A stretch of 64,000 nt of DNA from assembly GCA_951406725.2 (NCBI GenBank), contig OX597826.1, positions 20,212,001 through 20,276,000 on the forward strand, in the 5' to 3' direction. Each line of letters opens with the position of its first letter. Position 1 is the stretch's first letter. The DNA is from Octopus vulgaris (taxonomy: Eukaryota). The notes under the pieces were generated by a model that worked only from the letters and a program-made list of their open reading frames with translations, did no database searches and was not told the origin of the DNA. Both the position numbers and the translations under genes were made by a program. Shown here piece by piece: positions 13,830-59,233 of the stretch.

Positions 13830-13849
13830 AACACACACACACACAGACT

Positions 13850-24829: not shown

Positions 24830-25086
24830 AGTGATTCTCAACCATTTTCCCCCCAACGGACCCCTTAGATGTCTATTTTTCATGGGAGTTGGGGTGGGGG
24901 TCCTCATAGTCACTTGATGTTTAAAAAATTGTATTATAATTAAATATTATAAGGAATTGTATAAAAATATAGTTAACATATTTTGTTTATTGTAGAAGTA
25001 TAACAAGTTTATGGCAGATAAACTTTAACGACAAAACTTTATATTGACTCCTAAAGGTCATATGAGCCCTGGTTTAGAACCTCTGC
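24830..25086. mobile_element. hAT-like MITE
   Basis: Ends CAGTGATTCTCAACC and GGTTTAGAACCTCTG; a related truncated copy lies at about 47085-47290. Confidence 0.6.
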
Positions 25087-25129
25087 TCTCAGTCTACTGT
25101 TTTCTTTAAATAACTTTTTTCCATAGAAT

Positions 25130-25358
25130 TATAATTACGCCTTCAGAGAGATTAGTTAAGGAGAGATACGAGACTATGTTCTCAATTTATTATAATTTAT
25201 TCGTTACACGCACCTTACCGATAATTAAAGCGGTATAAAATATCCGGAACAATTTAAAAGGCGGAATGTTTATAGATTTACACCGTTGTCTTGATGTCAA
25301 TGAATAATCATGTGTTTAGGTCTGAGTTGAGTAAAATCAACTTTTGTGAAACAACTAA
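25130..25358 (+). promoter_or_regulatory. Probable MOCS1 promoter/5'UTR
   Basis: Local CpG retention and ETS-like CCGGAA/GCGGAA motifs immediately upstream of the first ATG. Confidence 0.4.
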
Positions 25359-25457
25359 ATGTTGCAGCATCTGTATAATGGGAAGAATATGATATGCATA
25401 TTTCGGAGAGCCTTCTGGCCTACTGCGCGGAATTATGTTTTATTGCGACATTTACAG
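25359..25457 (+). CDS. MOCS1: MOCS1A exon 1 (putative mitochondrial transit peptide)
   Basis: ATG preceded by in-frame TAA; MLQHLYNGKNMICIFRRAFWPTARNYVLLRHLQ is Arg-rich with no acidic residues; strong donor CAG|gtaagt, phase 0, matching exon 2. Confidence 0.7.
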
Positions 25458-25830
25458 GTAAGTACAGTTTAATAATGAGTCTGTTGTAAAATTTAATGCT
25501 GAATGTTTTAAGTTTCAACTTTTCTCTGTTTGCAATGTTAGAACTTGACCGAATTCTTGAAATGAAGACTGAAAGAGTAATCTTCTGAAATTAAGAAATT
25601 AATATTTTGTTAACTATTTATTTAAAAAACACTTCCGATTTGTTTCTTTGACAGAACATCTTTGTCGTTTGTAATTATATAATTTTCAAGGTGGAAGGTG
25701 TTATTAGGCACTAAACTGCGACACTAATTAATTTAGTTTTAAGCTTCGAATCAAGACAATTACGAAAAGAGCAAGTGTCAACTGCTTGCGTACTTCATTA
25801 ATAGAATTCCTTATAAATGTGTCTGATGCG

Positions 25831-26053
25831 AATGCAGTTTCGCACCTCTCCTTGAAAATGCAGGGGTTTTTTTGTTTTTTTTTTAAATTGGGGGTAGAAA
25901 GGGCCGAGTAAAATTAAAAAAATTTTTTTTTTTGTATATTCGTAATCTTCGACACCTAAAACAAAGGTTTCTGAAAATGGTTAACCATTTTGGAGAGCCT
26001 TCTGGCCTTCTGCGCGAAATTTTTTAAGGAAAGGTGCGAAACTGCATTAACCC
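25831..26053. mobile_element. MITE in MOCS1 intron 1
   Basis: TIRs AATGCAGTTTCGCACCT / AGGTGCGAAACTGCATT; same family as 49259-49656, in opposite orientation. Confidence 0.8.
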
Positions 26054-26211
26054 CTTGACTCTTTATTCTGAAAAGATTCTAGAAACAATTTGGGATTTTT
26101 TCATTCCTCTTTTATAAACTTACTCGCGTCTAGGGTACTTTTATACGGACTGTCGCTAAGTCCCTGCAACCCCTGCGGTCGCAGGGGGCCTCCGCGGTTG
26201 AGAGGTCCCAT

Positions 26212-26260
26212 GTTAAGACCAAGGTACATAGATTAGCCATCTATGTACTTTGGTTAAGAC
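26212..26260. mobile_element. 33-bp inverted-repeat insert between 8-bp direct repeats (probable DNA-transposon excision footprint, P-element-like)
   Basis: GTTAAGAC + CAAGGTACATAGAT TAGCC ATCTATGTACTTTG + GTTAAGAC. Confidence 0.65.
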
Positions 26261-27421
26261 GTTAACTGAAAATTTCAAACCAGACGAGTAAAAAAAATAC
26301 GGGGGTGTACCGTAATGAAAGAAATCCAAAACAATGAAAATAAGCACAACTTCAACAGAAAGACAAAAAGAAAGGAAGCAATGGTGATGAAAGGTGGGGA
26401 TGTATACATACATGCAAAGATACACACGCAGGCATACGTACATACACACTCACACACACGACTGGCTTTTTTCTGTTTCCGTCTACCAAATCCATTCACA
26501 AGGCTTTGGCCAGCCCGGGTTGATAGATAGATAGATTGACGTGTGCCAAACATACATACATCTCTTAGTCTCTCTGTCTCCCCCCCCTCTCTCTCTCTCT
26601 ATATATATATATAACGTTGTTGAACAGCTGCTGGTCACTTTGTACCCAGAACAGTGTTCTTTGACCTCCTAAGGCAATAAAAACTGGAGACAAAATTTTT
26701 TCTGTACCAAAAACAAGGCTCACGCGCGTGCACACACACACACAAGTTTGTGTTTTTGTATGTATCTATCTATGTACATATAAAGATGTTCTTTTCTACT
26801 CTAGGCACAAAGCCCGAAATGTTGGGGGAGGTGGGGGCAGTTGATTAGATCGACTCCAGTATGCAACTGCTACTTAATATATTGACCCCAAAAGAATGAA
26901 AGGCAAAGTCGACCTCGGCTGAATTTGAACTCAGTATGTAGACACGAAATACCGCTAAGCATTTTTATAGGAATACAGATATTGTTTGCTCACTGTCACC
27001 AAGCATCTCAACTATTGTAACTATTTTGTGATCGAGGTATTTTATTTTGATTGAACATCAAGTGAAGAAAAGATCGGACCAGTGAGATGGTGGAGAGGCC
27101 ACTAAGCATTTTGGGACACTCATATTCTCTCATGAGTCCAGATTTGTTGTATTTCCTGACAGTGGTTGAGTGTGGGTTTCTTTAGCCGAACTGCTAAGTT
27201 ACAAGGACATAAACACACCATCAGTTGTCAAGTGATGTTGGGGGGACAAACACACACACACACACATATGACAAGCTTATTTCAGTGTCTGTCTACCAAA
27301 TCCACTCACAAGGCTTTGATCAGTCCGAGGCTATAGTAGAAGACACTTGCCCAAGGTGCCATGCAGTGGGACTGAACCCAGAACCATGTGGTTCATAAGC
27401 AAACTACTTACCACACAGCCA

Positions 27422-27463
<42 letters not shown>

Positions 27464-27859
27464 AAACTCTAATTAGTGTTACACTTATGCCTTGACAACC
27501 GATCAGGGCTGAAGTATTTCCTGACCCTGAAAGGGGTAATATATGACCAATGACCCATTCTGTTTCTATCAGAGAATGGTAAAACATGTTTGTGAAAGAA
27601 GAATTTGTGTGCTTAAACATAAAGAAAAGAAAAAAACATGATGGGCACGTGCTGTAATTTGTCTCCTTTATTCCACTCTACCAATATTCAAATGAGGTTT
27701 GCTTTGGAGTTTGTTTAATATCAAAAATCAAAATGAACCTCTTAACCCTCACCCTGACAGAAGAGTTTATTTCATTGAATTTCTTTAAAAAGGTTTTTTT
27801 TTTTTTTTTCAGTTTCTGTTTGAATTTAATTTCATTAATTTAGTTGAATTTTCTTGCAG

Positions 27860-27989
27860 ACAGTTCCATTGAAAACAGGGAATTATTTTGATAACAATGT
27901 TCTGCCTTTCTCTGCTTTTCTCACTGATAACTATGGCAGACAACACACATATCTACGGATATCTTTAACTGAAAGATGTAATTTTCGAT
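27860..27989 (+). CDS. MOCS1: MOCS1A exon 2
   Basis: ttcttgcag| [34 protein letters not shown](C) |gtaagt; start of the radical-SAM CxxxCxxC motif. Confidence 0.95.
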
Positions 27990-29458
27990 GTAAGTTCACA
28001 CTTTAAAATATTCCACATTGTTTTGTGATTAAAATGTGTAATTAAGCAGTTTTTTTTATGTTTCATTTATGATTCATTTATTCGTTAAGGTCATGACTAA
28101 CAGACCATCACCTTAGAGACAACTGCTGTCAGCTCTTCCTTTGTGAACTTAAATATACTTCAGAGTAATATGTTGATTGTATCATCTCACCAATGTGCTG
28201 GTGGCTCATAAAAAGCTCCCACTACACTCTTGGAGTGGTTGGCATTAGGAAGGGCATTGAGCCATAGAAAACTTTCCATATCAGACTGGAGCCTGGTGCA
28301 GGTGACCAGTTTTCAGTCAGCACCATGGAAAGCGAACATTAAACGATGATGATGACAATGTGTGAAAACAGTTGTAGTTATGGGAAATAATGTCATTCAA
28401 TCTGTTTTCTCTTATCAGTTTCTTTATATACACACATACACACACATATATAGCACTCCCTGACTGGCTCCCGTGCTGGTGGCACGTAAAAAGCATTATC
28501 CAAACATGATCGATGCCAGGCCTGCTTGACTGGCACCTGTGCCAGTGACATGTAAAAAGCACCCACTACACTCTGAGTGGTTGGCGTTAGGAAGGGCATC
28601 CAGCTGTAGAAACTCTGCCAGATCAGATTGAAGCCTGGTGCAGCCGCTGGCTCTCCAGACCTCAGTCAAACCGTCCAACCCATGCCAGCATGGAAAACAG
28701 ACGTTAAACGATGATGATGAGTAAAGCTAGAAATATTCCTCTGTAAAGTTGATTAGTTTGTATGTTTTGTGGTATTTTCTTTGGTAATCTTTGCTCAGCA
28801 ATTGTCAACATAAGCTCCCTTTTATAATTTATTCTGGGTATTTATTGAGAGAAATAACATGTAAAGTTGTGGATATGCCTAAGCTGAAACTCTCCTCTGT
28901 TTGTCAGGCCTACATGTTTTTTGTAGGAATAATGTAACAGAGGGGGAGGAGGAGGGCTGCACCGTCACTCAGGCTCATTATGCTCATTATGGCTGAGCAG
29001 ACTGGAGCCATGTGCAACGAAGTGCAACACTCAACCACACAGTGTGCACTGCTTGGTCCATGATGACAACCGATGATTTTACGATCATGAGATGAACATC
29101 CTAATCTCCTAATCACTGGACCACACACACACACGTGTTGGGGCCACATAAAAAGTGTAGTGCCACATAAAAAGCACTTGGCACACTCTGTAAAGTGGTT
29201 GGCGTTGCGAAGGGCATCCAGCTGTAGAAACCAATCCAAAACAGACAATGGGACCAGGTGCAGTTCCTGTCAAACCATCCAACCCATGTCAGCATGGAAA
29301 ACAGACGTTAAATGATGATGATGATGGTGATGCACATATAGCAATACACATGCAACACATACTCACACACACACACACACAGAGTTATATATAAAAGTGA
29401 GATTAAGATGTGAACTGATTGATTTTCAATTGATTTAGTGAAACTTTGTATTTTGCAG

Positions 29459-29626
29459 GTCAATACTGCATGCCTGAATCTGGTGTGGAGCTGACCCCGA
29501 ATAAAAATCTTTTAACGACTGCAGAACTGATCCAAATCACTTCCCTGTTTGTTAATCAGGGCATTAAAAAAGTTCGTTTAACTGGAGGAGAGCCATTGAT
29601 TAGAAAAGATTTAATTAAAATTGTTG
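29459..29626 (+). CDS. MOCS1: MOCS1A exon 3
   Basis: ttttgcag| (C)[33 protein letters not shown] |gtgagt. Confidence 0.97.
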
Positions 29627-31181
29627 GTGAGTTTCTCTCTGTTATTGTTATTTAACCCTAGGACAGGCCTGATCCAACAGACATACAATCAAATGTTCTA
29701 TAACAGTTTGTTTTTTTTTTCTTTGCTGGCATAATGTACCTAGAAATGCATTATCTGATGTGTCCATCTCATTATTAAGACTCTAAGGTATGATAAGAGG
29801 ACAATTTGGTTGCTATTTCTAGCAAGTTGAGAAACCAAGTAGAGGTTTCTTTGTTAGTTTAAGGAACATGTTTTTTTTTTTTGCTTAAGATTGTTATTAA
29901 AAACCTTATCTGAATCCTGATATTTCTGAACACAATTCTGTTGTGGTTTTTGTAGTGCCAAGCCAGCTCTGATCCAGTAATTCTCTGGCTTAGGGATAGT
30001 CAACTGAATGACCAGGTGGGACCCACAAATCTGTTGCTTAAAATATATTTTGCTTTTATCTACCTGAGAACCATGCTAGACACATCAACACAATGAAAAA
30101 AAATGGTGGTGATGTTCTTTCTACTGTCTGTCCAGTATAGTTGTAGATTTTGGTGGTGGTCACAGTGGAGGTGGACATGCTAGACTTGGCCTGAATGCAA
30201 GAACATTTCTATATGGTCATTCAGCCAAGTTAGATTTACCTGTAAAATTTCAAAATATATTAAATAAATGTTAGGTATGGCAGGAAATGCAATTTGATGG
30301 TCATGGCTGGAATGTCTGTTGACTGATTTAAGTCTAATACGAACAGATGTATATACAGTCTTGTCATGTGTCACAGTACTTTTATATTTTGATAGGAGAG
30401 TACTCCTGTAATCAGAGAGCATGGTACTCTTCTATTCCAGCAATCAGTGCTATATGCACAATCTGTAAATGATTATTTCAGCTTATCCGGAAGGACTATA
30501 ATTATTATCATCATTATATGTGGCAAGCAGGCAGAATCATCGTTAGCATGTGTAGTGGCATTCCTTACAGGTTTACATTCTGAGTTCAAATTTTGATGAG
30601 GATGACTTTCATTCTTTCAGGGTCGATTAAATAAGTACCAGTTGAGCACTAGGGTCAATGTGATTGGCTAGCCCTCTCCCTCAAAATTCAGGCCTTGTGC
30701 CTATAGTAGAAAGGATTATTATTATTCAAAATTAGTGACACTGATTGTGAGGTTAAAGTGTTGGCTTTATGACCATAGAGTCATAAGTTCAAATCTTATG
30801 AGCATTTTGTTGTAACCTTGAGCAAGGTACCTGACTCTACTTGCTCCAGTTCACCTAACTGAACACAAAATAAATCAATTGATTGATTAACACATAGGAT
30901 GCACATTAGTTTGTACAAATAATAATAATTTCTCCAAAATATAAACCAGCCTCCACAAATATGGCAACACGAATAATGTAAGGTAACAATAAATATGACA
31001 AATAAACCTGTGACCATATTAGTGTGAATTTATTTACCAAAAATAGTTTGGAAATTGAGTTTGTGGTAAGAAACTGGTTTATTACTATATTCTATGTTTT
31101 ATTGGAATAAAGAAATGATTTTGAAAGAGTTTTTAATTCCTCAGGAATTTGATGTTTTTTTGTAATTCTTAAATATTTCAG

Positions 31182-31414
31182 AAGAACTTCATCTCCTGAA
31201 ACAATATGGTTTGGAATTTATTACTATGACAACCAATGGTGTGATTCTTCATCGAGTTGTGGAGAAGTTAAAAGAAGCTGGCTTAGATTCCCTGAATGTC
31301 AGTCTTGATAGTTTAATGCCACATAAGTTTGCTTTCATTACCAGAAGGAATTGTTTAGATAAAGTCTTAAAGAATATAGAGGGTGCTTTGGCAGCAGGAT
31401 TTTCTCCGTTAAAG
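31182..31414 (+). CDS. MOCS1: MOCS1A exon 4
   Basis: atttcag| EELHLLKQYGLEFITMTTNG..AGLDSLNVSLDSL..GFSPLK |gtaagg. Confidence 0.97.
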
Positions 31415-31924
31415 GTAAGGAAATGTCAATGCAGAATGTTTGAAATTTTTTCTTCCAAATTTAAAAAACAAATGTTTATGGCTTAGTAATAGCAGGAATG
31501 ACCATTTTAGTGATGGGGGCTCCTAGGCTGGCGGGGCAGTTTAATTCCAGTATTTGTGACAGAGTAGATTCTGCTAGAGACAGGTTGTGGCATTAAACTG
31601 GGCCAAAGATTTGGTTTGCTACCAAAGAATAGGTACAGGCCATATGATAAGCTTCAGCATAGTTTTCTTCTATTACAGTTCACTTGCAAGGCTTGTCTCA
31701 CCATGAGCTTATGATAACATGCACATAGTTAAACTGTTACACACACTAGAATTGAACCTGGTACCAAATGTTTGCCAAAGAACTTGCCCAACCATGCTTA
31801 AATTCATTATCACTTTAATTCCTCTATAAACTTAATTTATTAAAATAGTTCAGAGGGAAGCTTCTGTAGATACAGTGCTCGTAAACATATGAAATCTGTG
31901 AAATTTGTAGAGTTGTTACTTACC

Positions 31925-32381
31925 TTATTTACATTCGACAGATATTTGTCCTCATCTTTTTTGTTGTTAACACAATGTTTTGGCTGATATACCCTCCAGC
32001 CTTCATCAGGTGACTTGGGGAAATTTCAAACCTGGGTTCTCATTCCTAAGGTATTTTTTGATGTTATTATTATTATTCAGGTCACAACCTGGAATCGAAC
32101 TCGGAATCTTGGAGTTAGTAGCCCACGCTCTTAACCACTACGCCATATGCCTGTGGGCATAGTGGTTAAGAACGTGGGCTACTAACCTTAAGATTCCGAG
32201 TTCAATTCCAGGCAGTGACCTGAATAATAATAATATCAACAACATCGAAAAATACCTTAGGAATGAGAAGCCAAGTTTGAAATTTCCCCAAGACACCTGA
32301 AGAAGCCTGGAGGGTATATCAGCCAAAACATTGTGTTAACAACAAACAAGATGAGGACAAATATCTGTCAAATGTAAATAA
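31925..32381. mobile_element. Head-to-head inverted pair of tRNA-headed elements with Penelope-like tails (457-bp palindrome)
   Basis: Arms 31925-32144 and 32156-32381 are reverse complements with an 11-nt spacer. Each has A-box GGCRTAGTGG, B-box GTTC(G/A)ATTCC, a (TAA)n tract and CTGA(T/A)GAAG..CAGCC.AAAC. A further fragment lies at about 43780-43885. Confidence 0.9.
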
Positions 32382-33238
32382 TGTGAATAATGTACATAAT
32401 TCCTCATCTCTTAGATATAGAACTATATTGTTAGAGTTATGAGAGAGAGAGAGAGTTCACTTGATGCTCCACCAATTCTGTCAATCCACCACCCTGGATG
32501 AACGTATACCATGTCTGCCATTGGTGGATGGTAGTAGAGGAAGAAACGGGAAGTGAAGTTGGGTCTAAAAAGTATTGAGTTTCAAAAACAAGGTGAAAGT
32601 GGAATGGTAAGATGCCATGATATCAGACTTGTTCCATTCTGGTCACAATTGAACTCTAAGAATAAAGGATTATAGATAACTTATTTTCTTAGTGGCTTTG
32701 ATCCCTAGCCTGTGGCCATCCTTTGATCCCTAGTCTGTGGCCATCCTGGGGCACCATTTTGAAGAGTTTTTAGTCAATCATATCAACCTTAATATTTTAT
32801 CAATCTCGTTAATTGTAAACCATTAAGTTATAGGAAAGCCTGCATGTGGTGGCTTGACTTTCTCGAAACAGCAGCCAAATCCCCTTCCTCAAATCGTATC
32901 CTACAATTTAAAAAAAATATTTTGAGTAATGTAGTCATTGATACACTTTCTGAAAAGATGGGATGGCCAAGATTGGCTTGGAGTTAAACCCATCACTACA
33001 ATAACGAGTTTTAAGAATTGTAAACACAAGCACTGATGCTAAAACACACACACACACACACACATTCACTTCTGCACAGTTTCCATCTGCCAAATGGCAC
33101 TGACAAGGTAATGGTCAAACCCTAGGCCACAATAGAAGACGCATGGTGGGATTGAACCGATAATCATGTCATTGTGAAACAAACTTCTTCACCGCATGGC
33201 TGTAACCGATTTGATTTTTCTGTTCTAAATCTTTGCAG

Positions 33239-33310
33239 ATCAATTGTGTTGTTATGAAGGACCTCAATGATGATGAAATCTGTAATTTTGTGCAGTTAAC
33301 AGAGAAAATG
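33239..33310 (+). CDS. MOCS1: MOCS1A exon 5
   Basis: ctttgcag| INCVVMKDLNDDEICNFVQLTEKM |gtgagt. Confidence 0.95.
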
Positions 33311-33659
33311 GTGAGTTGATTTTCATTTGTGTTTATGATGATGATGGCAGTAATGATAATGAATGTTATGATGACAGTGGTGATGATGATATTTTCTCAG
33401 AATTCTATCTACATTCACTCTCTTGTTGCCGTGCCTCTGTTGAAATATGCTGCCGTTCTTTCAATTAATTTTGAAAATAATGGATAACTTTCCAAATTAA
33501 CTTATGTCGTTATTAACATGAAATTTTAATGAAGTAGTTTAATTCAAATCACTTTAGAACAAGAAGTTTGTCTCCTTAGAATCGGGACAAACTCTGTCAG
33601 CTTTGATCCAAAAGGGTTAACTGACCATAGGAGACATTTGGTTTGGTTTTAGTCTCTAC

Positions 33660-35180
33660 ACAAATGTGGTAAATTGACCGAGTTCTGAGTTCAAGTCTTG
33701 CTGAGGTTAATGTACCCTTTCTTCCTTCTAGGTTTGATAAAATACCAGTCAAATACTGGGGTTGGTTTACTCACCCAACACCCTTCTCCTTACAAATCTC
33801 TGGCTTTGTGTCTAAGTTAAGAATCATTTGTAAGGAGTGCTGTTTCAACAGAGTTATTACAGCAATGATAAACTGCCTTGTAGTATTTAAACCAGCTCTT
33901 TAAGCTTTGAGTTCAAATCCTGCCAAGATCAACTTTGGCTTTCGTCCTTCCAGGGATCAAGAAAAAAGTATCAGTCAAGTATTAAGATTGACATAAACAT
34001 ATCCAACCCACATAATTAGGGCTTTGTGCTTGTCTTTTAAAATTATTATTATTATTAAGGTGGGAAATGCTCAGGATTGTTAGTGTGTTGGACAAAATAT
34101 TTAGCAGTAATTCTTCTGGTTGTGTACATTCTGAGTTCAAATCCTGCCTAGGCCAGTTTTTCCTTTCATCAACTGGGGTTGATGCTATTAACTAACACCT
34201 TTCCCTTTAAAATTGTTGACTTTCTACTGAAATTAGAAATTATTATTATTATAAAGGCAGTGAACTGACAGAATCGTTAGCACGCTGGACTGAATGCTCA
34301 GAGGTATTTCGCCCGTCACTATGTTCTGAGTTCAAATTCTGCCAAGGTCAAATTTGCCTTTCATTCTTTTGAGGTCGATTAAATAAGTACCAGTTACGCA
34401 CTGATAATCCCTTCCCCCAAATTTGAGGCCTTGTACTTCCAGTAGAAAGGATTCTTATTACTAAGGCAGTGAGCTGACAGAATCGTTAGCATGCTGGATG
34501 GAATGCTTAGTGGTATTTTGCTTGTCACTGTTCTGAGTTCAAATTCCACCAAGGTCAACTTTGCTTTTCATCCCTTTCAGGGTTGATAAATTAAGTACCA
34601 GTTGCGTACTGGGGTTGATCTACTCAACTAGCCCCCTCCCACAAAATTTCAGGCCTTGTGCCTGTAGTAGAGAGGATTAGTATTGTTGCAATTAGCTGGC
34701 AGAATTGTTAGCACACTGAACAACGGCATTTCTTTTAGCTTTATGTTCCTAGTTCAAATTCCACTGATTTGCCTTTCATCCTTCCGAGGTCAATAAGATA
34801 AGGACCAGTTGAGCACTGGCGTCAATATAATCTATTTCTCCCTCCCCTAAAAGTTGCTGGTTCTGTGTCAAAAATGATCAAAAATTGTTATCATTAAGGT
34901 GTCGTGAAGGCAGCGAGCTGGCAGAATCATTAACCCACCTGGCAGCATTTTATCCGTCTTTATGTTCTGAGTTCAAATTCTGTCAAGGTCTTCTTTGCCT
35001 TTCATCCTTTCAGGGTCGATAAAATAAGCATCAGTTGAACATTGGGGTCAATATAATCAACTTAACCCACCCACTCCACCCAAATTGCTGGCCTTGCACC
35101 AAAACTCAAAAACCATTATTAGGAAGTCATGTTGGCAGCAATTTTTCTGGCACGATGGACGAAATTCTTAGCAGCATTGT
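33660..35180 (+). mobile_element. Tandem cluster of about 7-8 family-2 tRNA-derived SINEs
   Basis: Repeated GGCAGTGAGCTGGCAGAATCGTTAGC..TTCTGAGTTCAAAT..CCTTTCATCC..AAGTACCAGTT..GGCCTTGTGCC units separated by (ATT)n. Confidence 0.85.
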
Positions 35181-35246
35181 GTCTTGCCCCTCCTCCAACT
35201 TTTAAGCCTTGAATTATTATCGAAAAATCATTGTTTCTGCTTTCAG

Positions 35247-35399
35247 AATTTAGACGTACGATTTATAGAGTACATGCCTTTTCAAGACAACAAATGGAAT
35301 TTGAAGAAAATGGTTCCTTACAAAGACATGTTGGAAATTATTAAAAGAAAATGGCCAAACATATCAAAAATTAAAGATAAACCTAATGATACATCAAAG
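35247..35399 (+). CDS. MOCS1: MOCS1A exon 6
   Basis: tttcag| NLDVRFIEYMPFQDNKWNLKKMVPYKDML..NDTSK |gtatgt. Confidence 0.97.
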
Positions 35400-36364
35400 G
35401 TATGTTGAAAACCTATTCCTGGATTTTGATGTCTTTTACAATCAGGAGAATTTGGTTCTCAGTTATGTTGGTATTTTTGTAAAAGTTTACCATATTTTGT
35501 TTTTATTTTATATCAGAATTGGTGAACAATGGTTCCATTGGTTCCAAGTTTTCAATAGACTGATCATTGGTTCACTATTTATGATAGTGTGAAAGGGGAG
35601 TTTCTGTAACTCAGTGCAGACCAAACATTTCCAGGAACTTACTTAAAAAGCAACAGTTTTTCAGTTTCTCATTGATGTTCCGTCAATATAATCAATATAG
35701 ATCCTTGAAAGATATATGTGCACAGACGCACACACACACACCTGTGTTGTATGGCCCTAATAACTAGGCCATGTATGATCATAAAGTTGTAGGTTTGATA
35801 CCTGAACTGGATGGTGCCTTTTATCCTTGAGGAAGGCAATTCATTTCTTATTACTCCAGTCTACTCAACTAACAATGGGTACCAACCAAGTTGCTGGTAC
35901 AGCTCTGTTCCTCCTGCAAAATTTTGGATGTTCTGTAGGGTCAAAGAACAGCCAAAAAGATGTCTTCTCTTGACTCCACAGGCACCTAAAACTATTAGCA
36001 AAAGCATGGAACCATACTTGGGAGACACATACATGGTTTATACACACACACACAATGGGCTTCCACATAGTTTCCCTCCACTAGACCCCTTCATGACCAC
36101 ATAGTCATGTTGGCATCTATGTCTTTGTTTATTTTATTATTATTTTTAATTTTTAGAGATAATTTTACTGGTTTTACATTAAAAATTAGTTCACTTTTTT
36201 TCATTGCCTGCTTACATAGTTTATTGTTAGTTGTTGTAGTATGTTCACAACTTATTGGACTTTTAAATTCATTTTCCTATTATTTAAAAAAGAAACGTAT
36301 GTTACAAAGAAAATAATTTTTCCCCGTAAAATGTTAAGACTATTGTTTTCTTTTTTCTTTTAAG

Positions 36365-36475
36365 GCCTTCAAAATTCCTGGATTTGAAGGTCAAATAGGT
36401 TTTATTACTTCCATGTCTAACCATTTCTGTGGCTCCTGTAATCGTTTAAGACTTACGGCCAATGGAAACCTCAAG
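36365..36475 (+). CDS. MOCS1: MOCS1A exon 7
   Basis: tttaag| [37 protein letters not shown] |gtatc; CxxC of the C-terminal [4Fe-4S] cluster. Confidence 0.97.
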
Positions 36476-37215
36476 GTATCAACTTTATTTCTTTTATTCC
36501 TTCTTTTTATTCCGCCAGCTCGTGGCCATGCTGGGGCATCATTTTGAAGGGTTTTAGTCAATTACAATACTTAACTCATTTTATCCATTCCTATTTATCG
36601 AACGGATAGGTTTGTCTATTGAATTACGTCACCTAAGAGTTACCTCCCCTGAAAAAGTAAATCTGACAACAAACGTTCTTTTCTATTTTTAGGGACTTTA
36701 AGGAATAATTAACTTTATTTTGTCTGTTTTATTCAATTTTTCAACACTGGGATAGTTGTTGTTTCTATATATATATATATACATGTGTTTTGTGTCTCCT
36801 TACCTTGACATTGTGTGTGATAATTATAAAATGATTGTCACTATCATTCGGTTCCAATATTCTTCGAGAACGTCTAGCCACGAGGAAATGTTACTTTGCT
36901 TGGAAACAAGGAATGGTCTCTGATGGCTAATAAAACCAGTGAGAAATGGTGACCTGTTGCATGAAGGGTTGCTATAGAACCACTTTCTAGATTGTTGGGA
37001 AAATGGTGAGGCAGCAAAACCTAAGATAAGAGGGAATGTCACAGATAGTAATTTGACCAAAGAATCAACAGATGTCTGCCCAAGATGCAAATGAGGTCTG
37101 GATGGTATGAACATGATTGTAAAAGTGAGGTCTGCATCTTTGAGTTAAATTAGGTGATGTTTTGCATGAAATATGTTTAAATAAAAATTGTTGTTAACCT
37201 ATTTCTAACATTCAG

Positions 37216-37336
37216 GTTTGTCTTTTTGGAAATGAAGAAATATCTTTGAAAGACATGATTCGAAAAAATGCTTCTGATGAAGAAATCCTAAAGCATATAG
37301 AATTTGCTGTGAAACGGAAGCATAAACAACATGCTG
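37216..37336 (+). CDS. MOCS1: MOCS1A exon 8
   Basis: ttcag| VCLFGNEEISLKDMIRKNASDEEILKHIEFAVKRKHKQHA |gtgagt. Confidence 0.97.
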
Positions 37337-37959
37337 GTGAGTATTTAAGCTGTATTTGCTCAGATTAGTTAAGACTTCTCTCACATTTATCCTAAGACAT
37401 GTCTCAAAGTTGTCCTAAGACTGAACTGTTGCTGTGACTTGGCACATCTTTCATAATCTTGATCTGTTTGAACTTTTAGGTGGTTGCTTGACCTGTTAGA
37501 AACAGTAACTAAACCATCCTTATATCACACACTATCATCTTAAAAAGAATGAAAGAACACTCTTGATAATAGTCCTAGATTCATAATGCTTGGAACTTGT
37601 CAAAACAGTGATGGTCATATCTGGAATGTCTTGGATTATACTGAATGTCTGTCAAATCAGAGCTGAATCTTATGGTTTTTTCCCTCAGGTTTCTCAGCTT
37701 CTTTCATATCTTCGTTTTAACATTAATTAGTATTAATATTGTAATATTAATTTCCGCCGAGGTGCACTTTGCTTTTCATCCTTGTTAACTGTAGTTTGCC
37801 CATTGCTCTGTTCTGAGTTCAAATGCCACCGAGGTCGACTTTGCTTTTCGTCCTTTTGGGGGTCAATGGAATAAGTACCAGTTGAGTACTGGGGTCGATG
37901 TAATCAACTATCTCCCCCCTCCACCAAATTTCAGGCCTTCTGCCTATAGTAGAATGGAG

Positions 37960-38010
37960 GTATCCCCGCCTGTCACACAGGAGACCAGGGTTTGATTCCC
38001 CACTGGGGAG
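37960..38010 (+). pseudogene. tRNA-Asp(GTC) pseudogene, 5'-truncated
   Basis: GTATCCCCGCCTGTCACACAGGAGACCAGGGTTTGATTCCCCACTGGGGAG versus canonical GTATCCCCGCCTGTCACGCGGGAGACCGGGGTTCGATTCCCCGACGGGGAG; most differences are CpG transitions. Confidence 0.85.
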
Positions 38011-38698
38011 GCATTGTTCATAGGTGCAAGAGTGGCTGTGTGGTAAGTAGCTTGCTTATCAACCACATGGTTCCGGGTTCAATCCCACTGTGTGGCACCT
38101 TGGGTAAGTGCTTCTACTATAGCTTAAGGCTGAAGCCTTGTGAGTGGATTTGGTAGACAGAAACTGAAAGAAGCCCATCATGTATATATATGTGAGTGTG
38201 TGTTTGTCCCCTCACCATCACTTGACAACTGATGTTAGTGTGTTTACTTCCCTGTAACTTAGCAGTTTGGCAAAAGAGACCAATAGAATAAGTACTAGGC
38301 TTACAAAGAATAAGACCCAGGGTCGATTTTTTTTCCAACTAAAGGTAGTGCTCCAGCATGGCTGCAGTCAAATGACTGAAACAAATATAAGAATAGAGAA
38401 AGGTGGTGAGCTGGCAGAATCGTTAGTGCACTTGACAAAATGCTCAGCTGTAGTTTGCTCATTGCTATGTTCTGAGTTCAAATGCTGCTTAGGTTGACTT
38501 TGCCTTTCATCATTTCGGTGTCGATGGAATAAATATCAGTTGAGTACTAGAGTCACTGTAATTGACTTTCCCCCTCCACTAAATTTCAGGCCATGTGTCT
38601 ATAGTAGAACGGATTATTACTTTATTATTAAGGTGGTGAGCTGGTAGAATCGTTAGCATGCTGGATGAAATGTTTAGCGGCATTTTGTCTGTCTTCAC

Positions 38699-38780
38699 AC
38701 TCTTCCATATTTGATCCACCTAAATGGTACACACATACACATATGTGTGTACCATTTGGGTAGATCAAATATGGAAGAGT
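38699..38780. repeat. Near-perfect 39-bp-arm hairpin
   Basis: ACTCTTCCATATTTGATCCACCTAAATGGTACACACATA-caca-TATGTGTGTACCATTTGGGTAGATCAAATATGGAAGAGT, two mismatches. Confidence 0.9.
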
Positions 38781-39253
38781 ATGATAAAGTATCGATTGGT
38801 TGACGTTAGGAAGGGCATCTAGCCGTAGAAACACTGCCAGATCAGACTGGGCCTGATGCAGCCTTCTAGCTTCACAGACCCCAGTTGAACCGTCCAACCC
38901 ATGCTAGCATGGAAAGCGGACGCTAAATGATGATGATGATGATGATTTTAGGCTTTTGGTAATTTAGTTTAAAGCATTGGCTCATTGTCAATGCTTAGCA
39001 TCTTTGAAATGACTGTTTCTGTTTATTAAATTCTTCCAACCACAGAAGACACTGAGACTCATGTTACTAATCAGAGATTGAAGATGAAACCATGTGATTG
39101 TGAAGTGAACTTCTCTGCTGCTGTAATTATTTCAAAATCCAGCTGTGTTGCACACCTGGAAAGGTCGTCTTCAACAAACCAAATCTGTATTCCACTTCAA
39201 ATAATGCCTGATTATTTTCAGGAAGAATACATCAAACTGTTTTCTCTCAACAG

Positions 39254-39309
39254 GTGTTCATAATATAAAGAATATGAAAAACCGTCCTATGGTTCTAATT
39301 GGTGGTTGA
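39254..39309 (+). CDS. MOCS1: MOCS1A exon 9 (last coding exon, C-terminal GG motif)
   Basis: ctcaacag| (G)VHNIKNMKNRPMVLIGG-TGA. The nine exons sum to 1143 nt = 380 aa plus stop. Confidence 0.97.
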
Positions 39310-39401
39310 GTGATATTGAATTAATATTAAAGGTAATTATTTTCTATATCTGTTTATATATACACACATACACACTCACTCTGCCCTTTATATTCTTGCA
39401 G

Positions 39402-39490
39402 ATACCAATTTAAGAATGGTTCTAAAATCATTTGAAATTTTAGGATTTTTTTTTGTAAGAATAAATTATAATTTCTGATGAAAATAGTTA
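39402..39490 (+). other. MOCS1: Probable non-coding terminal exon of MOCS1 with polyadenylation signal
   Basis: Donor AAG|gtaatt at 39332/39333, acceptor tattcttgcag| at 39401, AATAAA at 39460-39465. Confidence 0.5.
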
Positions 39491-41114
39491 AAAATGGGGG
39501 AAATTTTTTTATTAATTCATTATTAAAATACAACAGAAATTTAATACTTATGTTTAAATTATTTCATTCCACTCTGATGGATGAAGGCTTCAGCATGTTG
39601 TTGCTGTGTTGGTTGTAGATTCATCAGATGCTCTTTTAGTGGTGAGCATCAGAGGAATGGGGAGAGGTAAGGTTTTGTAGGTAAGAATTTTTTTTTGTAA
39701 CAGTGCAGTTCTGAGTTCCATCCCTAGCACAGTACAACACCCAGAACAAATATCTTTTACAGGGGGAATTTGGCCAATGAAGACTGTGCAGAAGCCTGTT
39801 GTGTGTGTGTATTACACATATGCATATATTGCAAAGCATCTCATCCAAGCCTCTCTGCCAGTCCACCACCCAGGCAATGGAGGGTGTAGCTAAATATACA
39901 GACTCCAATACTTGACTGCTATTTTATGTCATCAACTTTCAGAGGAAGGAAAAGTTAATCTTGCCTGGAACTGTTTAAAATATTGACATGTTGTGCCATA
40001 GACTAAATCAATTTTGATGGACAGCAGTAATCTTTGCAGAAATTCCAGCCTTTATCTTAAGGCATTAAGAGGATAATTAAGTCAACTTATTCAGTTCCCT
40101 TCTTCAAACTCCTCCATCAATAACATTGATGTTGTTCAGTGGTCTTTGTCTTCTGTTTTGAAGCAGAAGTCTCCAAAATATAACATCTAATATTGCCTGC
40201 TCTTCAGCGCAATAGCTGTGGCCAGTGAAGTTTATCTTGTGTTGAGCAACGATAGCTGAGAGGACGGTCTCCATAAAGTTCATCTTTGGTCTTGGGTTCT
40301 CACCATGAGCAATTTTGAGTCCTCATAACATGCATAGTTATGAGGGCTCAAAGGGGATTTTTGAAGGGCCTTCTTCATTCATAGTCCACTTCAAAACTTG
40401 AACTGGACCTGTTACAGAGCTAGTGGTATTATACAAGATGATAATGTAAAGCTGGGGGCTTTTATAAATAAGGCAGTAATTTATAAGGCTGTGGGGGATA
40501 ATGAGTTTCATTAAATTGTTTGTTAGAGCATTGACTTTTTACAAACATTGTGATAAATGTTTTTAACAATCTATAATTTAGAAATCCAACATATTCACTA
40601 ATAGCCTCAACATGGTCGCTAGAAATAACAGCTAAACCTCCCTCAAACCCCATTTTTAAAACAGAATGTAGTCTAGACTACATTATGCCAGTGATGGGAG
40701 TGGCCATGGGTAGAATACCTTTGATTATAGATCTTCTCAACTGGGGCTGACTTGGGGCTAAACAACAGCCAAAAATGAATTCTTCAAGACAAAAACTAGA
40801 TCCATCTAACTATAAAATAACTAAATTCAGTGAAAACTTCAGTTTCCACTCAGTTACAAAGCATTATTAGTTGTTTCATATCTGAAGACTTGGTACATGA
40901 ATTTATTTATGCCTGTTGATTCTCCTCCAGGTCTTCCTTTAACTGTAGTTAGGTTTCATAGAGGACAAAAAAAACAGATTTCTTTCAAAAGAAACCAACC
41001 AGCCAGCCATGTGTCACAATCTGCTTTTATGGAAAACCCTGTGTTTATGTAAAACAGTTTATTTTTATTAAAATTGAAACAAGCTATGGAAACTTTAGGA
41101 AATTTACAAATTGG

Positions 41115-41299
41115 TCATAATATCACAGTTCCTTGTGATCTTGATCTTGATGCCAAACTACTGGTTGGCATAAAGTCTCGGATACTGCAGTTTCTCTGCT
41201 TCTTCCGACTACACAGAACATAGAGGCTGAAGCTGACTGAAACCAGGGTTATTAGCACCAATAATCCCAGAATTGAGTAGACAATTGTCAGGTCCATTT
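41115..41299 (-). CDS. Uncharacterised type I membrane protein, last exon (TM helix + cytoplasmic tail)
   Basis: Acceptor ttttttgtctcatttcag|, phase 1, matching the donor at 49855; (E)MDLTIVYSILGLLVLITLVSVSFSLYVLCSRKKQR..QGTVIL-TGA; minus-strand AATAAA at about 41058-41069. Confidence 0.8.
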
Positions 41300-41429
41300 C
41301 TGAAATGAGACAAAAAAAATTTGAGATTTCATCTGAAGAGATTAATTGGTATGTACTGGAGTCAGGTTTGGTAAATGAAGACAGTTCTAACAAATGCAGT
41401 AATATTTTATCAAAATAAGATTAGGCAAA

Positions 41430-42682
41430 GTTCAGATAGCTCTGACCCCTGCTGGCAACAAAGGGCCTCTCTCTCAGAGTGAAAGACAAATCTGTGTGCG
41501 AACAGCTATGTTGCATGGCAGTGAAACATGGGCTATGGTAGCTGAAGGCATGCATAAGCTTGAAAGAAATGAGGCCATACATGTCTCTACGTGTCATATT
41601 GTAAATTTCAGCTTTCCACTAATATTCGTTTGTCTTTTACAGCTGCTGAAGTGGACTAAGCTGTTATAATGGAGACAGGTGAATGCAGATCAGGGACCAG
41701 GTTCTTATACCTGAAAGGCCATACACCAAAAGAGACTTTCGATGAGATGAAAGCAGTCATCTCATGAAAGCACCATCATACGATGTAGTCAAGCACTGGC
41801 ATCACCATTTCAAATGTGGTCGGACATCGGTGGAAACTGCACCTATTCCTGGATGACTACATTCCACCATTGATGACACCACTATCCCACAAGTGGAAAT
41901 TGCCATTTGGGAGGATCGCTGCATAACTATTTGGCAACTAGCCCAAGAAGTGAAGATAAGTGTAGGGTCCATGAAAAAAAATCATTCACGACCATTTACA
42001 CATGCGAAAGTTGTCTGCACGATGGAGTCCCTGGATGCTCACACCATTTCAGAAGCAGGAACAAGTCAATTGCTCTTTTATAAACGAGGACTTTTTTGGC
42101 AGACTTATCTCACAGGATGAAACCTATGTCCATCACTTTGATCCTGAAACAGTCAAAGCAAGGTAACTCACCACCTCCAAAGAAGGCTTGTGTCCAACCC
42201 TCAGCAGGCAAGGTGATGTTCAGTCTTTTGGGACCAGTGCAGAGTAGTGATGATGGATTTTCTGGCAAAGGGCACCACAATTAACAGGGCATATTATGCT
42301 TCTCTGCTGCAGAAATTGCAGGAAACCATCAAAGCAGAGAGACAACACCCCAGTGCGCGTGTTGCCCAGATGAAAGCACACTCCTGCGGCTATGAAATCC
42401 TTCCTCGTCCCCATTATCTCCCGACCTCACACCATCTGACTTCCACCTCTTTCCAACCATGAAGGGGGGGGCACTTTTCGGATGACGAACTTATTTCCGA
42501 GGTAAAGTATTGGCTCCAGATGCAACTAGAGATGAGGTCTTCACAGCTGCATAAGACAATGGGAGAAGTGTGTCACCATTGGTGGTGGCCAGGTAGAGAA
42601 GGACTAATAATTATGCCAAGTTTCAGTTATCTCAGTCCTTGGCAACTGGGTTAGAGGAAATCTTTAAAGAACACCCTTCATA
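41430..42682 (+). mobile_element. Mariner transposon relic (disrupted transposase) inside the membrane-protein intron
   Basis: EDRCITIWQLAQEVKISVGS, PPPKKACVQPSAGKVM, DFLAKGTTINRAYYASLLQKL, GYEILP..SPDLTPSDFHLF, WEKCV; right end ..AACACCCTTCATA. Confidence 0.9.
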
Positions 42683-49656: not shown

Positions 49657-49854
49657 CCACCCCAACCCCCGTCCCCAAGTTATACCCAAATCCCTGCTTA
49701 CCATTCTAATAAAACAACGACACGTTGGATAATGTAAATTCTGAGAGTGTCTATTGAAATAAAGGAAACTGTTGTGAATGAGAATGGGAACTCAGTTGCA
49801 AACTGGAAAACAAGAAATTAGGTTTGTTTCCAGAAAATAAAGTCTTTCACTTAC

Positions 49855-50548
49855 CTACAGGTATAAGAATACCGGTTCCAGTTCCTGCTGGATGAGGAAC
49901 AGCGACGGCTTTGTCGTAATTTATTTTTATTTCCGTAGAAATACTAATGCTGTTTCTGTTTGATTTACTTTCGACACCGTTCACTTGTATTTCGTGTCTT
50001 ATGATGTTGTAAGCTGACTTCGTGTCGTTCTTGCTTTGAATCCCTGATGTAACATCGACATTTAAAGGTTCTTCAGACTGGAACTGCTCAGAATGGTTCA
50101 GGTTGATCAACGCAGCAGGGCTAGACATCGCCTCTTCGTGATTGCCTTTCGTATTTCGGTCGTAGTTGGACAAGGTTTGTAATTTTCGGCAGCAAATTGA
50201 GTTTAAACACGTCCGTTGGTCGACAATTATGCGCTCCACGATCTCCAAAATTCTTAAATTAATTTTTCGACAGTTGAGTTTAGTTCTTCGTGCATCAATG
50301 ATTTCTAGATCAGGTAAATGGCTTATATTAAAGTCTAATTGTTTCAAAGGTGTTTCTTTTATCGACAATGTCGCATACCCCGGGTGGCTCCTACGAAACT
50401 GTAAACTTTGAAATGATTTCTTATCACAGTCAATGAGTTTTGACTGCTCTCTCCAAATGCACTCATCTTCAATAAATATCGTCGTTCCATGGACACACGT
50501 ATGGAATAAAATCGTTAAGAAGAACAAACTGAGATATTCATTAATCAT
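49855..50548 (-). CDS. Uncharacterised type I membrane protein, first coding exon (signal peptide, LRR-like domain, stalk)
   Basis: Long ORF in otherwise closed DNA. MINEYLSLFFLTILFHTCVHG resembles a signal peptide; C-x9-IDC cap and LxxLDF/LPDLEIIDARRTKLNC LRR-like strands; donor GTAG|gtaagt phase 1; acceptor ttttcacag 20 nt upstream of the ATG. Confidence 0.8.
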
Positions 50549-53029
50549 GATAGAATTAGTAAAAATAACTGTGAAAACGAAGGAAGTGAATTGCAAAATT
50601 CCTCTCCAAAACGATGTTGACCGTTTCTTTTTAAAGTTATTGTGCAGAATGAAGAATATAATACAAATGGTAAGAGGGGGGAAAAAAGTCATATTTTCGA
50701 CTGGAATCAGAGAATAAATCTTACACATTGTGATGAGTAATAGTTCCTGTTTTAAGAGTCAGTTTCCGAGTGGAATAACCCAGTAACACATAAAAAGACC
50801 ACAGAAGGCCATTTAAAAGACAGGAATGACGAATTAAAAGATTACAAACCGAATACTTGATAAATTATTTTTCTTTTATGTCAGTAAAACCAGTGGAACA
50901 AATGTATTTCAGTTATTTATGGCCTGTTTAGTGTTTTTTAAGGGACAAAGTTCTTATCATGTCATAGTCCTGAAGAGGATTTCATGCTGGGAAATGAATG
51001 AACACCACACATTCCATTCTCATTTCCCTTAAACTATCCGTCCTTTGTGTCTATACAAGAAAGAAAAAAAAAGGATTTAACCAACTTAACCTCACCAAGC
51101 AGAGGTTTGAGAAGTTCTTTACTTTCTATGAAGGAAAAAAAAATAGAAGAGGCGCAGTTATCGTCACGTGGTTAAAAAGTTTGTTTCGTGTCCACGTAGT
51201 TCCGAGTTCGAATCTCCTGCACGGTAACCGCGCAAGTGTCTCCTACTGTATCTTTTGGTTGGCTAATACTTTAAGAATGTAATTTAGAAGACAGAGACTG
51301 TGTAGGAGATGATCTCGTGTGTATGTGTGTACGGATGGGGGATTATATATTTAATTAAATAAATAGAAGGTTGACTAAAACCTTTGAATACTCTGACCTC
51401 AGCATGGCTTCCGTTTAAAAACTGAAACTAGTAACTAAACTCCACAATTATATCAAATATATTTCAAGTATGGTAACACTTTATTTTATCTAATATAGTT
51501 TTTACAACAAAAGCCGGCGAGCTGGCATTCATCTGTCTTTACGTTCTCAGTTCAAATTCTTCCGAAAATTCACTTTGCCTTTCATCCTTTCGGGGTCGAT
51601 AAATTAAGTACCAGTTGCATACTGATACGCCCAACATGAATTATCTTTTTCTTTTACTTGTTTCAGTCATTAGACTGCAGCCAAGCTGGGGTACCACTTT
51701 GAAGAATTTTTAATCGAATGAATCAACTCCAGAACTATTTTTTAAAGCCTGATTATTCTATCTGTCCCCTTTGCCAAACCGCTATGTTACAAGGACGTAA
51801 ATAAATCATCACCGACTGACAAGCGGTGGTCTCACGCGCGCGCACATATATAGATATATATATATATATATGCCCGTAATAAAATTTCCTCTGTATTAAC
51901 ATCTTAGGTTTCTTAGTGTCTTGCCCCTTTAACTGGTAATTAAAATCATGATTTAAAGACTTCCTCTACCCTGCCTCTTTTTATAGACAGTTACTTATAT
52001 CCAAAAGACTTCTCCCAATGTCTTATTTCCTCCCTGGAGGAAAAGGATACATATGATAATATTTATGGCCATACCCCTAGCCATGAGCTGTCAACTCACT
52101 CTTGTCTCAGATTTAGTCATTGATAAAGGGATGAATGAATTACAACTCTTATAACCCTATGACCCCACTATGCTCCATGCGATTCTTAGAAAGAGTAATC
52201 TATTCTTAGTCAAAATGGCGACAACATGAATTTCTTCCATCTTCTTACCCTGTTAAAATATTTAAGAAAAATTATATTAATGTGTCCTACTTGCTAAAAT
52301 TCCATTTATTTGTGCAGTTGAAGATAGCCTTGCATTTAAATTGATGTAATGATTGCATTGTTCAATTAAATGGGGTCGCTTGAAACGGTCGTACTGCATC
52401 ACTACTTGATATCTGTTGCTTATTTTGATTACACACATACACACAATGGGCTTCTTTTAGTTTCTGCCAACCAAGTCATCTACGGCTGAACCGGGAACCT
52501 TGAGGCTGAGAAGCAAACATCCTACCACACAACCAAACCTGCCTCTATTAAGACATTGTCACAATTTACCATTTGCCCCACATTAAAATCTGATACCGAG
52601 AAAAAAAATCTCGGTTGTCTTTCGTTCCCTTCGTATTTCGTACGTGTTTAATATTTAATTGGGGTTTGGTGAAGTTGATACAAGGTAATATGCCAAATTG
52701 AGGGCGTTTCCAACAGAGGTAGCATATTAGTTTCCTGTCATAGAAGTATTATATATCCCTGCAGTTGTGATAAATATGCAGTTATGCACATGGAGAAACA
52801 TATCATTCTAAAGTTCAAATTGCATTTAGAGTAATCTGGAATCTTTTGTACAGTAAATGGTCCACCAACGAAATGAAATTCCTCGATAGTTGATTTGAAA
52901 AAGCCTCCTCGACTGTCCAAGGTTAACTTAGCCATCACTCATATGTGAATAGGACCTGGTCGCTGATGTAGATACTCTCTTGGCACTCCCACATTTCTTC
53001 CAGAACATTGACTCTTGCATCATCTTCAC

Positions 53030-57950: not shown

Positions 57951-58185
57951 TGATCTCTCTTCTTGGTCACAAAAGGAAAACTGTCTGATTTAAACACAGA
58001 ATCTACTTTTTCACATCAAGGTCATAACTGTGTGTTTTATAAAAAAAAAAGAAAAAACATTTCCTTTACTTATTTTTACTAATGTCATATAATTAATTCT
58101 ATTAATACATAGCATACACATTTGCATGTGTGTGTGTGTCTATCTAATGTATGTCAATATCTGTTTCAGGTTCTTCTATTGAAAC

Positions 58186-58365
58186 ATGACTGAAAACACC
58201 ACAGAAGCAGCATGTCTACCTCGTCCTCTTTATTCACATCTTTATAGAATTCCATTATCGGTGTGGAAGCTGATAGAACAGACAGTCCCAGATTCTGAGA
58301 GACAAGAAATCAAGAATATTTTAGGTGTTGGTTTGGTTGAAGAAAGTATCCAGCTCCAGAATGAG
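58186..58365 (+). CDS. CCDC24: Coiled-coil domain-containing protein 24-like, coding exon 1
   Basis: MTENTT..PLSVWKLIEQTVPDSERQEIKNILGVGLVEESIQLQNE |gtgagt; resembles CCDC24 [30 protein letters not shown]. Confidence 0.85.
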
Positions 58366-59233
58366 GTGAGTATATACCCCAGTTACTTGTGTATAAACAT
58401 GAGGAATATCTATATAGTTGCTGGAGAAAAAAACTGCTTTTCCACCTTCTTTCTGTTTCTTTACAGTTTGGTTCCAAATGCTGCCAAAGTCAACTCCAGC
58501 TCCAGAAATGGCAAAAATAAAGTGCTAGTATTGGAGTAGATGGTACCAACTAACCCCCACCTTTAAATTACTAGCTTGTACCTCAATTAAAAACCATTAT
58601 TATTATTATTACTACTGTTGTCCGCTGAGGCCCCTGCACTGGTGGCAAATAAATTATCATCATCATCGTTATTATTATTATTATGGCAATGTGCTGGTGG
58701 AATCATTATGGCACTGGACAAAATGCTTAGCAGCATTTCTTCTGGCTTTATGTTCTGAGTTCAACTTTGCCTTTCATCCCTTTTAGGGGGTCAATAAAAT
58801 AAGTACCAGTTGAGCACTGGGGTCCCTGAAACTGCTGGCCTTGTGCCAAAACTTGAAAGTATTATTATTATTGGGGTGGTAAGCTGGCAGAATCGTTGGC
58901 ATGCTGGACGAGATGGTTAGCAGCATGTCGTCTGTTGTTATGTGCTGAGTTCAAATGTCACTGGGGCATAAATAAATACCAGTTGAGCATTGGAGTTGGT
59001 GTAATCAACTCATCCTCTCCCCTAAACTTGCTGGCCTTGTGCCAAAATTTGAAGGCATCATTATTATTATTATCATTATTTCATCATCATCACCAACACA
59101 AAACTGGGAATAAATCAGTTTCAGATTTAGTGAGTTTAAATCCAGTTGAAATTTAAGAGTTCAGGCTTGTATTATAAACAAATGTTCTGTTTTTGCATAA
59201 TATTGTTATTTTTGGAAACAGACTTTATATTTC

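Follow-up and report, generated by a model that had tools for sequence, protein, structure and literature searches.

The window analysed here is a 64-kb stretch of the 2.8-Gb Octopus vulgaris genome (C13:20212001-20276000), with zero N, that carries MOCS1A on its forward strand. The spliced model consists of nine coding exons (25359-39309) encoding a 380-aa MoaA protein with the C-terminus NRPMVLIGG, and is the same sequence as Octopus vulgaris record P0314. Exon 1 (25074-25457, +) includes a 5' UTR from approximately 25074, where a contig of run X1 starts, with the ATG at 25359 (the runs used were guessed to be RNA-type on the basis of the spliced join described below). The CpG o/e around this start is ~1.0 at 25000-26000 as compared to 0.05-0.2 in flanking bins. 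About 30 nt of exon 1 (25404-25432) recur in intron 1 (25987-26017). Exons 2-8 (27860-27989, 29459-29626, 31182-31414, 33239-33310, 35247-35399, 36365-36475 and 37216-37336, +) cover the radical-SAM and Mob_synth_C regions. All introns between coding exons are GT-AG and leave a single open frame, and spliced pieces were also present among the RNA-type contigs. Specifically, the protein matched the radical-SAM family PF04055 (E 1.4e-33), with the CxxxCxxC motif (CNFRCQYC) spanning intron 2, and the C-terminal auxiliary cluster domain PF06463 (E 5.7e-41), and it retains the Gly-Gly terminus (LIGG). By these domains and motifs MOCS1A is predicted to be a GTP 3',8-cyclase. The first 30 aa contain five K/R and no D/E, a basic, acid-free composition consistent with a predicted mitochondrial presequence.

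The last coding exon, exon 9 (39254-39332, +), is 79 nt long, which is not a multiple of three, and ends the frame in GG-TGA (GGTGGTTGA, positions 39301-39309; TGA at 39307-39309), with a donor 23 nt further on (AAG/GTAATT at 39332/39333). This donor opens a candidate post-stop intron of 69 nt (39333-39401, +; GTAATT...TTCTTGCAG), followed by a putative non-coding terminal exon (39402-39585, +) with polyA signals at 39460 (AATAAA) and 39522 (ATTAAA). The three frames entered from 39402 close after 3, 10 and 25 codons, and if exon 9 is skipped the MOCS1A frame closes 25 codons on. An earlier sequence-only reading had described the GG-TGA, the donor, the 69-nt intron and the AATAAA at these positions, with the exon beyond closed in all frames within about 25 codons, and all of this was reproduced; its exclusion of readthrough was likewise borne out by further in-frame stops after the TGA (GG-stop-VILN-stop-Y-stop). 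By a crude estimate, the chance of a donor this good within 50 nt of the stop together with an acceptor 50-120 nt beyond is ~0.007. The sizes of the RNA-type contigs are compatible with the post-stop intron being either spliced or retained. A 1634-nt contig of run X1 fits a spliced form ending at 39585, an end obtained by arithmetic from this one contig, and the adjoining contig starts at 39587, while a contig of run X3 fits the retained intron and ends at the microsatellite at 39360. The 184-nt piece predicted for the X1 spliced form was not among the matches listed; the runs were compared with 18 kb of the window, and SINE matches swamped the joint table around this intron. Under the 50-nt rule for NMD, an intron 23 nt from the stop would be too near to elicit decay.

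No MOCS1B ORF follows the MOCS1A stop, so that the locus is not bicistronic. MoaC motifs were absent from all six frames of the window, a tblastn search of the window with the genome's own MoaC gave a best E of 0.53, and an animal MoaC profile run over the window and its two 10-kb flanks gave a best E of 8.9 (3.5e-68 for the C4 positive control introduced below). The agreement of these searches extends to the flanks the earlier claim, made for the remaining downstream sequence, that MoaC is missing from the MOCS1A locus, and no missed or distant MoaC exon near MOCS1A was found by motif, tblastn, profile or nhmmer. Beyond MOCS1A lies a convergent neighbour whose last exon and 3' UTR occupy 40539-41301 (-). 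It had been said to end at 41115; the stop codon does lie there, but an RNA-type contig of run X1 runs on to 40539. The coding part of this exon (41115-41301, -) has a hydrophobic, transmembrane-like stretch, and a 303-aa open frame at 49847-50758 (-) has a signal-like hydrophobic stretch and cysteines, neither matching a Pfam family; from their sequence features the two are likely to belong to one membrane-protein gene. Degraded transposase sequence, which we take to be mariner-like, lies inside the intron of the convergent gene (41650-42560). An exon at 58183-58539 (+) with a weak CCDC24 match (E 0.027, below the cut-off) is probably part of the other plus-strand gene that the earlier reading mentioned, and a strongly C-skewed 252-aa open frame at 13799-14570 (+), with no Pfam match, resembles a retroelement remnant, presumably of reverse transcriptase/GIY-YIG type.

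A genome search with PF01967 returned a single match, stop-free and on another contig, at C4:39051779-39052186(-) (E 1.9e-49). The corresponding search with the MoaA C-terminal family also gave a single match, inside the window; both searches score best candidates only, so that faint relics could escape them. C4 is a chromosome-sized contig of 176.7 Mb. Its MoaC ORF, the one intact MOCS1B found, is a single coding exon of 257 aa with its own ATG, in which a 93-residue extension precedes a full PF01967 domain (profile positions 1-136 of 136, 176 bits). A splice acceptor lies 16 nt 5' of the ATG, and an in-frame TAG stands between the two, 15 nt before the ATG, which precludes an in-frame A-B fusion through that acceptor. 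MoaC residues H77, E112, E114 and K147, which we assume to be active-site residues as well, have the counterparts H169, E204, E206 and K239 in octopus MOCS1B. In an alignment to 4pyd_A, the E. coli MoaC active-site residues K51, D128 and K131, as given in the accessible text of PMC9026282, align to octopus K143, D220 and K223. At residue 145 (L001 1456-2226, -), octopods have KKGS where most relatives and the sister clade described below have KKGD, that is, Ser for Asp after K51-G52. In each of the five coleoid-type proteins that were scored, the first 60 aa are basic (7-10 K/R as compared to 1-2 D/E), and from this composition MOCS1B is predicted to have its own mitochondrial targeting peptide; both octopus proteins have N-termini that are basic, acid-poor and amphipathic in composition. 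A search of the ESM Atlas with MoaC returned generic eukaryotic MoaC clusters only. A second MOCS1A beside the C4 gene was ruled out by the genome search and by a search of 90 kb around the gene, where no MoaA relic was found (best E 5.5).

The C4 gene decides between the two outcomes proposed from the window alone, fission or relocation of MOCS1B on the one hand and loss of cPMP synthase on the other. Loss, with cPMP or Moco obtained from the diet as in some nematodes, has a precedent in losses reported for parasitic nematodes in the available part of PMC7619442, but MoaC is intact and spliced in octopus, and its domain is better conserved than its leader (80% as compared to 34% identity between octopus and Argonauta). 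Loss of MOCS1B is thus refuted, the chance that cPMP synthase has gone is negligible, and fission or relocation stands.

Transcription of the C4 gene was examined in four runs (four study codes, two species labels). In each, one contig spans most or all of the MOCS1B ORF, halts at the acceptor and then carries the same 29-30 letters, which map to C4:39057819 beside a GTGAGT donor and have one match in the 90 kb examined and none in the window. MOCS1B therefore has a non-coding 5' exon on the same contig, located 5.3 kb upstream and joined across a GT-AG 5' UTR intron of 5,297 nt. Two of the contigs hold 515 and 529 extra letters, which, if contiguous, would place the transcript start at approximately 39058333-39058346. 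The CpG o/e at this putative 5' end is 1.28, the same signature as at the start of MOCS1A, as compared to 0-0.31 across the MoaC exon and at the end of ZW10 further upstream. The leader, as far as its letters were seen, has two upstream ATGs. The one at -35 stands in a less favourable context than the main ATG and begins an out-of-frame uORF of 41 codons; this uORF overlaps the main start and, judging by this layout, could damp MOCS1B translation.

Transposon-like pieces flank the 5' exon within C4:39056350-39059740 (L006 4350-5010 and 7100-7740): the 5' UTR intron holds a multicopy inverted-repeat element, and upstream lies a 214-aa transposase-like ORF with no Pfam name, which we take to be of the IS1595/Merlin type. 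A transposon origin of the 5' exon itself was rejected, since 485 nt of it occur nowhere else in the genome and the one multicopy part is a 55-bp repeat at the far end. This 55-bp sequence (C4:39058299-39058355), at the putative start of MOCS1B, has more than 500 candidate copies in the genome. At other sites it forms the 3' terminus of a longer repeat, and here it may supply part of the MOCS1B promoter. The exons of the kinetochore gene ZW10 (C4:39065370-39076521) lie on the same strand and end ~7 kb upstream of the 5' exon. With the MOCS1B contig read up to but not including its far 5' end, read-through from ZW10 into MOCS1B was not supported, as the CpG profile speaks against it and ZW10 has polyA signals of its own (AATAAA). 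The public 372-aa O. vulgaris MoaC model (P0121, C4:39059668-39051734) joins the upstream transposase-like ORF to an internal acceptor, with the real N-terminus lost; none of the four runs showed a loose end at this internal acceptor, and the model is therefore probably a mis-annotation.

These data bear on whether trans-splicing rebuilds a fused product or, alternatively, whether the split is an assembly error, both of which together are considered highly improbable. No splice form bypassing the stop to fuse A to B was found, in contigs from which rare splice forms drop out and could thus escape, and no octopus AB isoform was present among the eight members of the MOCS1A cluster. The in-frame TAG past the C4 acceptor and the local cis splice of MOCS1B in all four runs also count against trans-splicing. 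The same two-contig layout was found in three further octopods, with A and B records on contigs of 72.3 and 164.8 Mb in O. sinensis, 65.1 and 147.8 Mb in O. bimaculoides, and 47.9 and 138.1 Mb in Argonauta hians, each species' pair being taken as one assembly. This argues against misassembly, the second way, besides an overlooked downstream MoaC exon, in which the fission reading could have failed.

In most animals, the two halves are joined in one gene. Among the best 120 of 611 long MoaC relatives, 116 were A+B fusions and none was named as a cephalopod. The fusions listed, all database models, include gastropods (Haliotis, two Patella, Babylonia), a chiton (Liolophura) and annelids (Owenia, Helobdella), and the clams Ruditapes and Mercenaria also have A+B fusion records. 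A-only or B-only entries also exist for Lottia, Mactra and oysters, so that a stand-alone entry by itself proves nothing. In a 49-row tree, three clusters of MoaC proteins of 251-257 aa were sister to the octopod proteins (support 97/93). These have a similar N-terminus, MF(W/R)R, and no fused form of them was among the best 120 of 611 long matches; judging by their position in the tree, they are probably from squid or cuttlefish. A word-limited search recovered no decapodiform MOCS1A among 34 matches. According to the accessible text of PMC9068888, octopuses and decapodiforms split ~275 Mya, and the coleoid stem underwent intense interchromosomal rearrangement from which Nautilus was spared. 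We lean, with some reserve, towards the MOCS1 fusion having been undone once in the coleoid stem, before ~275 Mya, amid this genome-wide rearrangement, which offers a setting for the split and not a proof of it. If this is correct, cPMP synthesis in all squids, cuttlefish and octopuses would depend on two genes under independent regulation, and no AB precursor would be made.

The C4 gene is likely to have descended vertically at a fast rate, as judged from sequence comparisons. In free trees from 160-column alignments, coleoid-type MoaC fell outside other animals and not inside molluscs, while placement with animal MOCS1B was not rejected in three AU tests (p-AU 0.50, 0.11 and 0.87). A bacterial moaC gained horizontally could have replaced the native MOCS1B and then acquired a presequence and promoter. 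In keeping with this, Bacteroidota-type proteins share up to 59% identity with the coleoid type, equal to Lottia, and one quick tree put the two together (SH-aLRT 90, unstarred), a grouping that an AU test on a 27-row set left standing (p 0.387); animal and bacterial profiles score coleoid-type proteins alike, with diagnostic columns splitting about evenly. However, the Bacteroidota rows were picked as best matches to the query, and other molluscs are as near to that bacterial clade (mean identity 56.2% for Arion, 55.6% for Babylonia and 54.5% for Haliotis as compared to 50.6-55.2% for the coleoid type). The C-terminal GG motif is missing from the Bacteroidota-type clade, which also carries a deletion of 2 residues, whereas coleoids keep both the GG and the full loop, and in a 71-row set holding coleoids with animals gave a log-likelihood 23 above that of the free quick tree (p-AU 0.868). 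The single coding exon on another chromosome would also suit a bacterial gene, but the ancestral MOCS1B was already single-exon. Horizontal gain is therefore disfavoured as very unlikely.

Taken together, the results point, with a probability of roughly 0.86, to an ancestral bicistronic MOCS1 that has split into two unlinked, intact and separately spliced genes, whose proteins are predicted to be imported separately into mitochondria and likely make cPMP there. In the available text of bioRxiv 10.1101/429183, human exon 10 is described as coding for the whole of MOCS1B, preceded by 95 non-conserved residues that suffice for mitochondrial import, and A and B as acting as separate matrix proteins; with all of MOCS1B and its import residues encoded, exon 10 is nearly a self-contained gene, short only of a promoter and of a start codon in use. 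In the proposed route, the ancestral terminal exon 10, holding all of MOCS1B and the ~95-residue targeting linker, would have arrived on C4 together with its acceptor, whether by a move, by duplication and later loss, or as a retrocopy. There it would have gained a new promoter and 5' exon, and translation from an ATG where the linker begins would have given the presequence. The original exon 10 would then have decayed into 3' UTR, leaving MOCS1A with a post-stop intron. MOCS1A would form 3',8-cH2GTP from GTP, and from this product MOCS1B would make cPMP, as in other species, and the A:B ratio would be set by two promoters, and possibly by the uORF over the MOCS1B start, instead of by splicing round the stop.

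The post-stop intron plausibly, if so far only suggestively, descends from ancestral intron 9. Over its first 30-60 nt, the exon at 39402 weakly resembles the start of the MOCS1B exon (C4:39052520), with an ATG 14 nt past the acceptor in the window and 16 nt past it on C4. In anchored alignments at five lengths, 1-6 of 800 other acceptor-like sites and 4-26 of 2000 shuffles did as well or better. The resemblance is suggestive only, since it was seen by eye before the test, the sequence is rich in A and T, and such a relic would hardly be expected to last 275 My. An acceptor, a similar beginning and a nearby ATG at both loci would be expected if both derive from one exon 10, as they also would if the whole fused gene had been duplicated and each copy had then lost one half, a route to the same end state. 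That route is somewhat unlikely: exon 10 copied with its acceptor would give the same resemblance, MoaA relics were found neither in the 90 kb round the C4 gene nor among the best candidates elsewhere in the genome, and few unlinked duplicates are reported in coleoids in the accessible text of PMC9068888.

MOCS1 is a textbook pair of enzymes tied together by splicing round a stop, with MOCS1B held never to be translated alone. A free B gene in an animal lineage would mean that animals can do without the fusion, the AB precursor and its cleavage, and the octopus split could be used to test why the coupling is retained in most animals and fungi (ratio control, import order). Octopus MOCS1B may also serve import studies as a natural single ORF with a presequence. 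If it extends to all coleoids, the split would be a trace, in a single gene, of the reshuffling of coleoid chromosomes, and cephalopod phylogeny would gain a rare genomic character; the cPMP chemistry itself is ordinary. Public databases already annotate the octopus A and B proteins separately, and no published report of a cephalopod MOCS1 split was found in the literature searched, most subscription papers being outside it.

The fused MOCS1 layout was reportedly noted in fly and nematode by Gray and Nicholls in 2000, and C. elegans moc-5 is itself a fused A/B gene. Two cPMP-synthesis loci, moc-5 and F49H6.5, are described in this one animal in the accessible texts of PMC7619442 and PMC13653925, a possible partial precedent for the octopus, although the two are there called paralogs and share peptides. 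Human and other animal MOCS1 resembles the octopus in gene structure: the MOCS1A GG-stop lies in the ninth coding exon with a junction shortly beyond, and MOCS1B is one exon with a ~95-aa extension ahead of MoaC. In human MOCS1 (splice types I-III), however, B is described as arising only via the AB fusion, which is then cleaved (Mayr et al., bioRxiv 10.1101/429183, available part), whereas the octopus B gene sits on a different chromosome from A, with a separate ATG and 5' exon, and its acceptor permits no fusion. Neurospora nit-7, as described in the accessible text of PMC7232280, has as its functional end state separate A and B domains in mitochondria, as predicted for octopus, but is one gene, and its B has no import signal of its own and depends on the fusion. 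Plant Cnx2/Cnx3 and bacterial moaA/moaC are two separate genes, as in octopus. The plant pair, in which each protein is described as having its own N-terminal mitochondrial signal (10.1101/429183, available part), a feature predicted by composition in octopus, is by analogy the best working model for the octopus arrangement, where two unlinked, separately transcribed genes are likewise found. The fusion, which the same source traces to the base of unikonts, arose in a lineage that does not include plants, and the two-gene state of octopus would thus have come about by secondary reversal, from a molluscan ancestor whose gene was fused.
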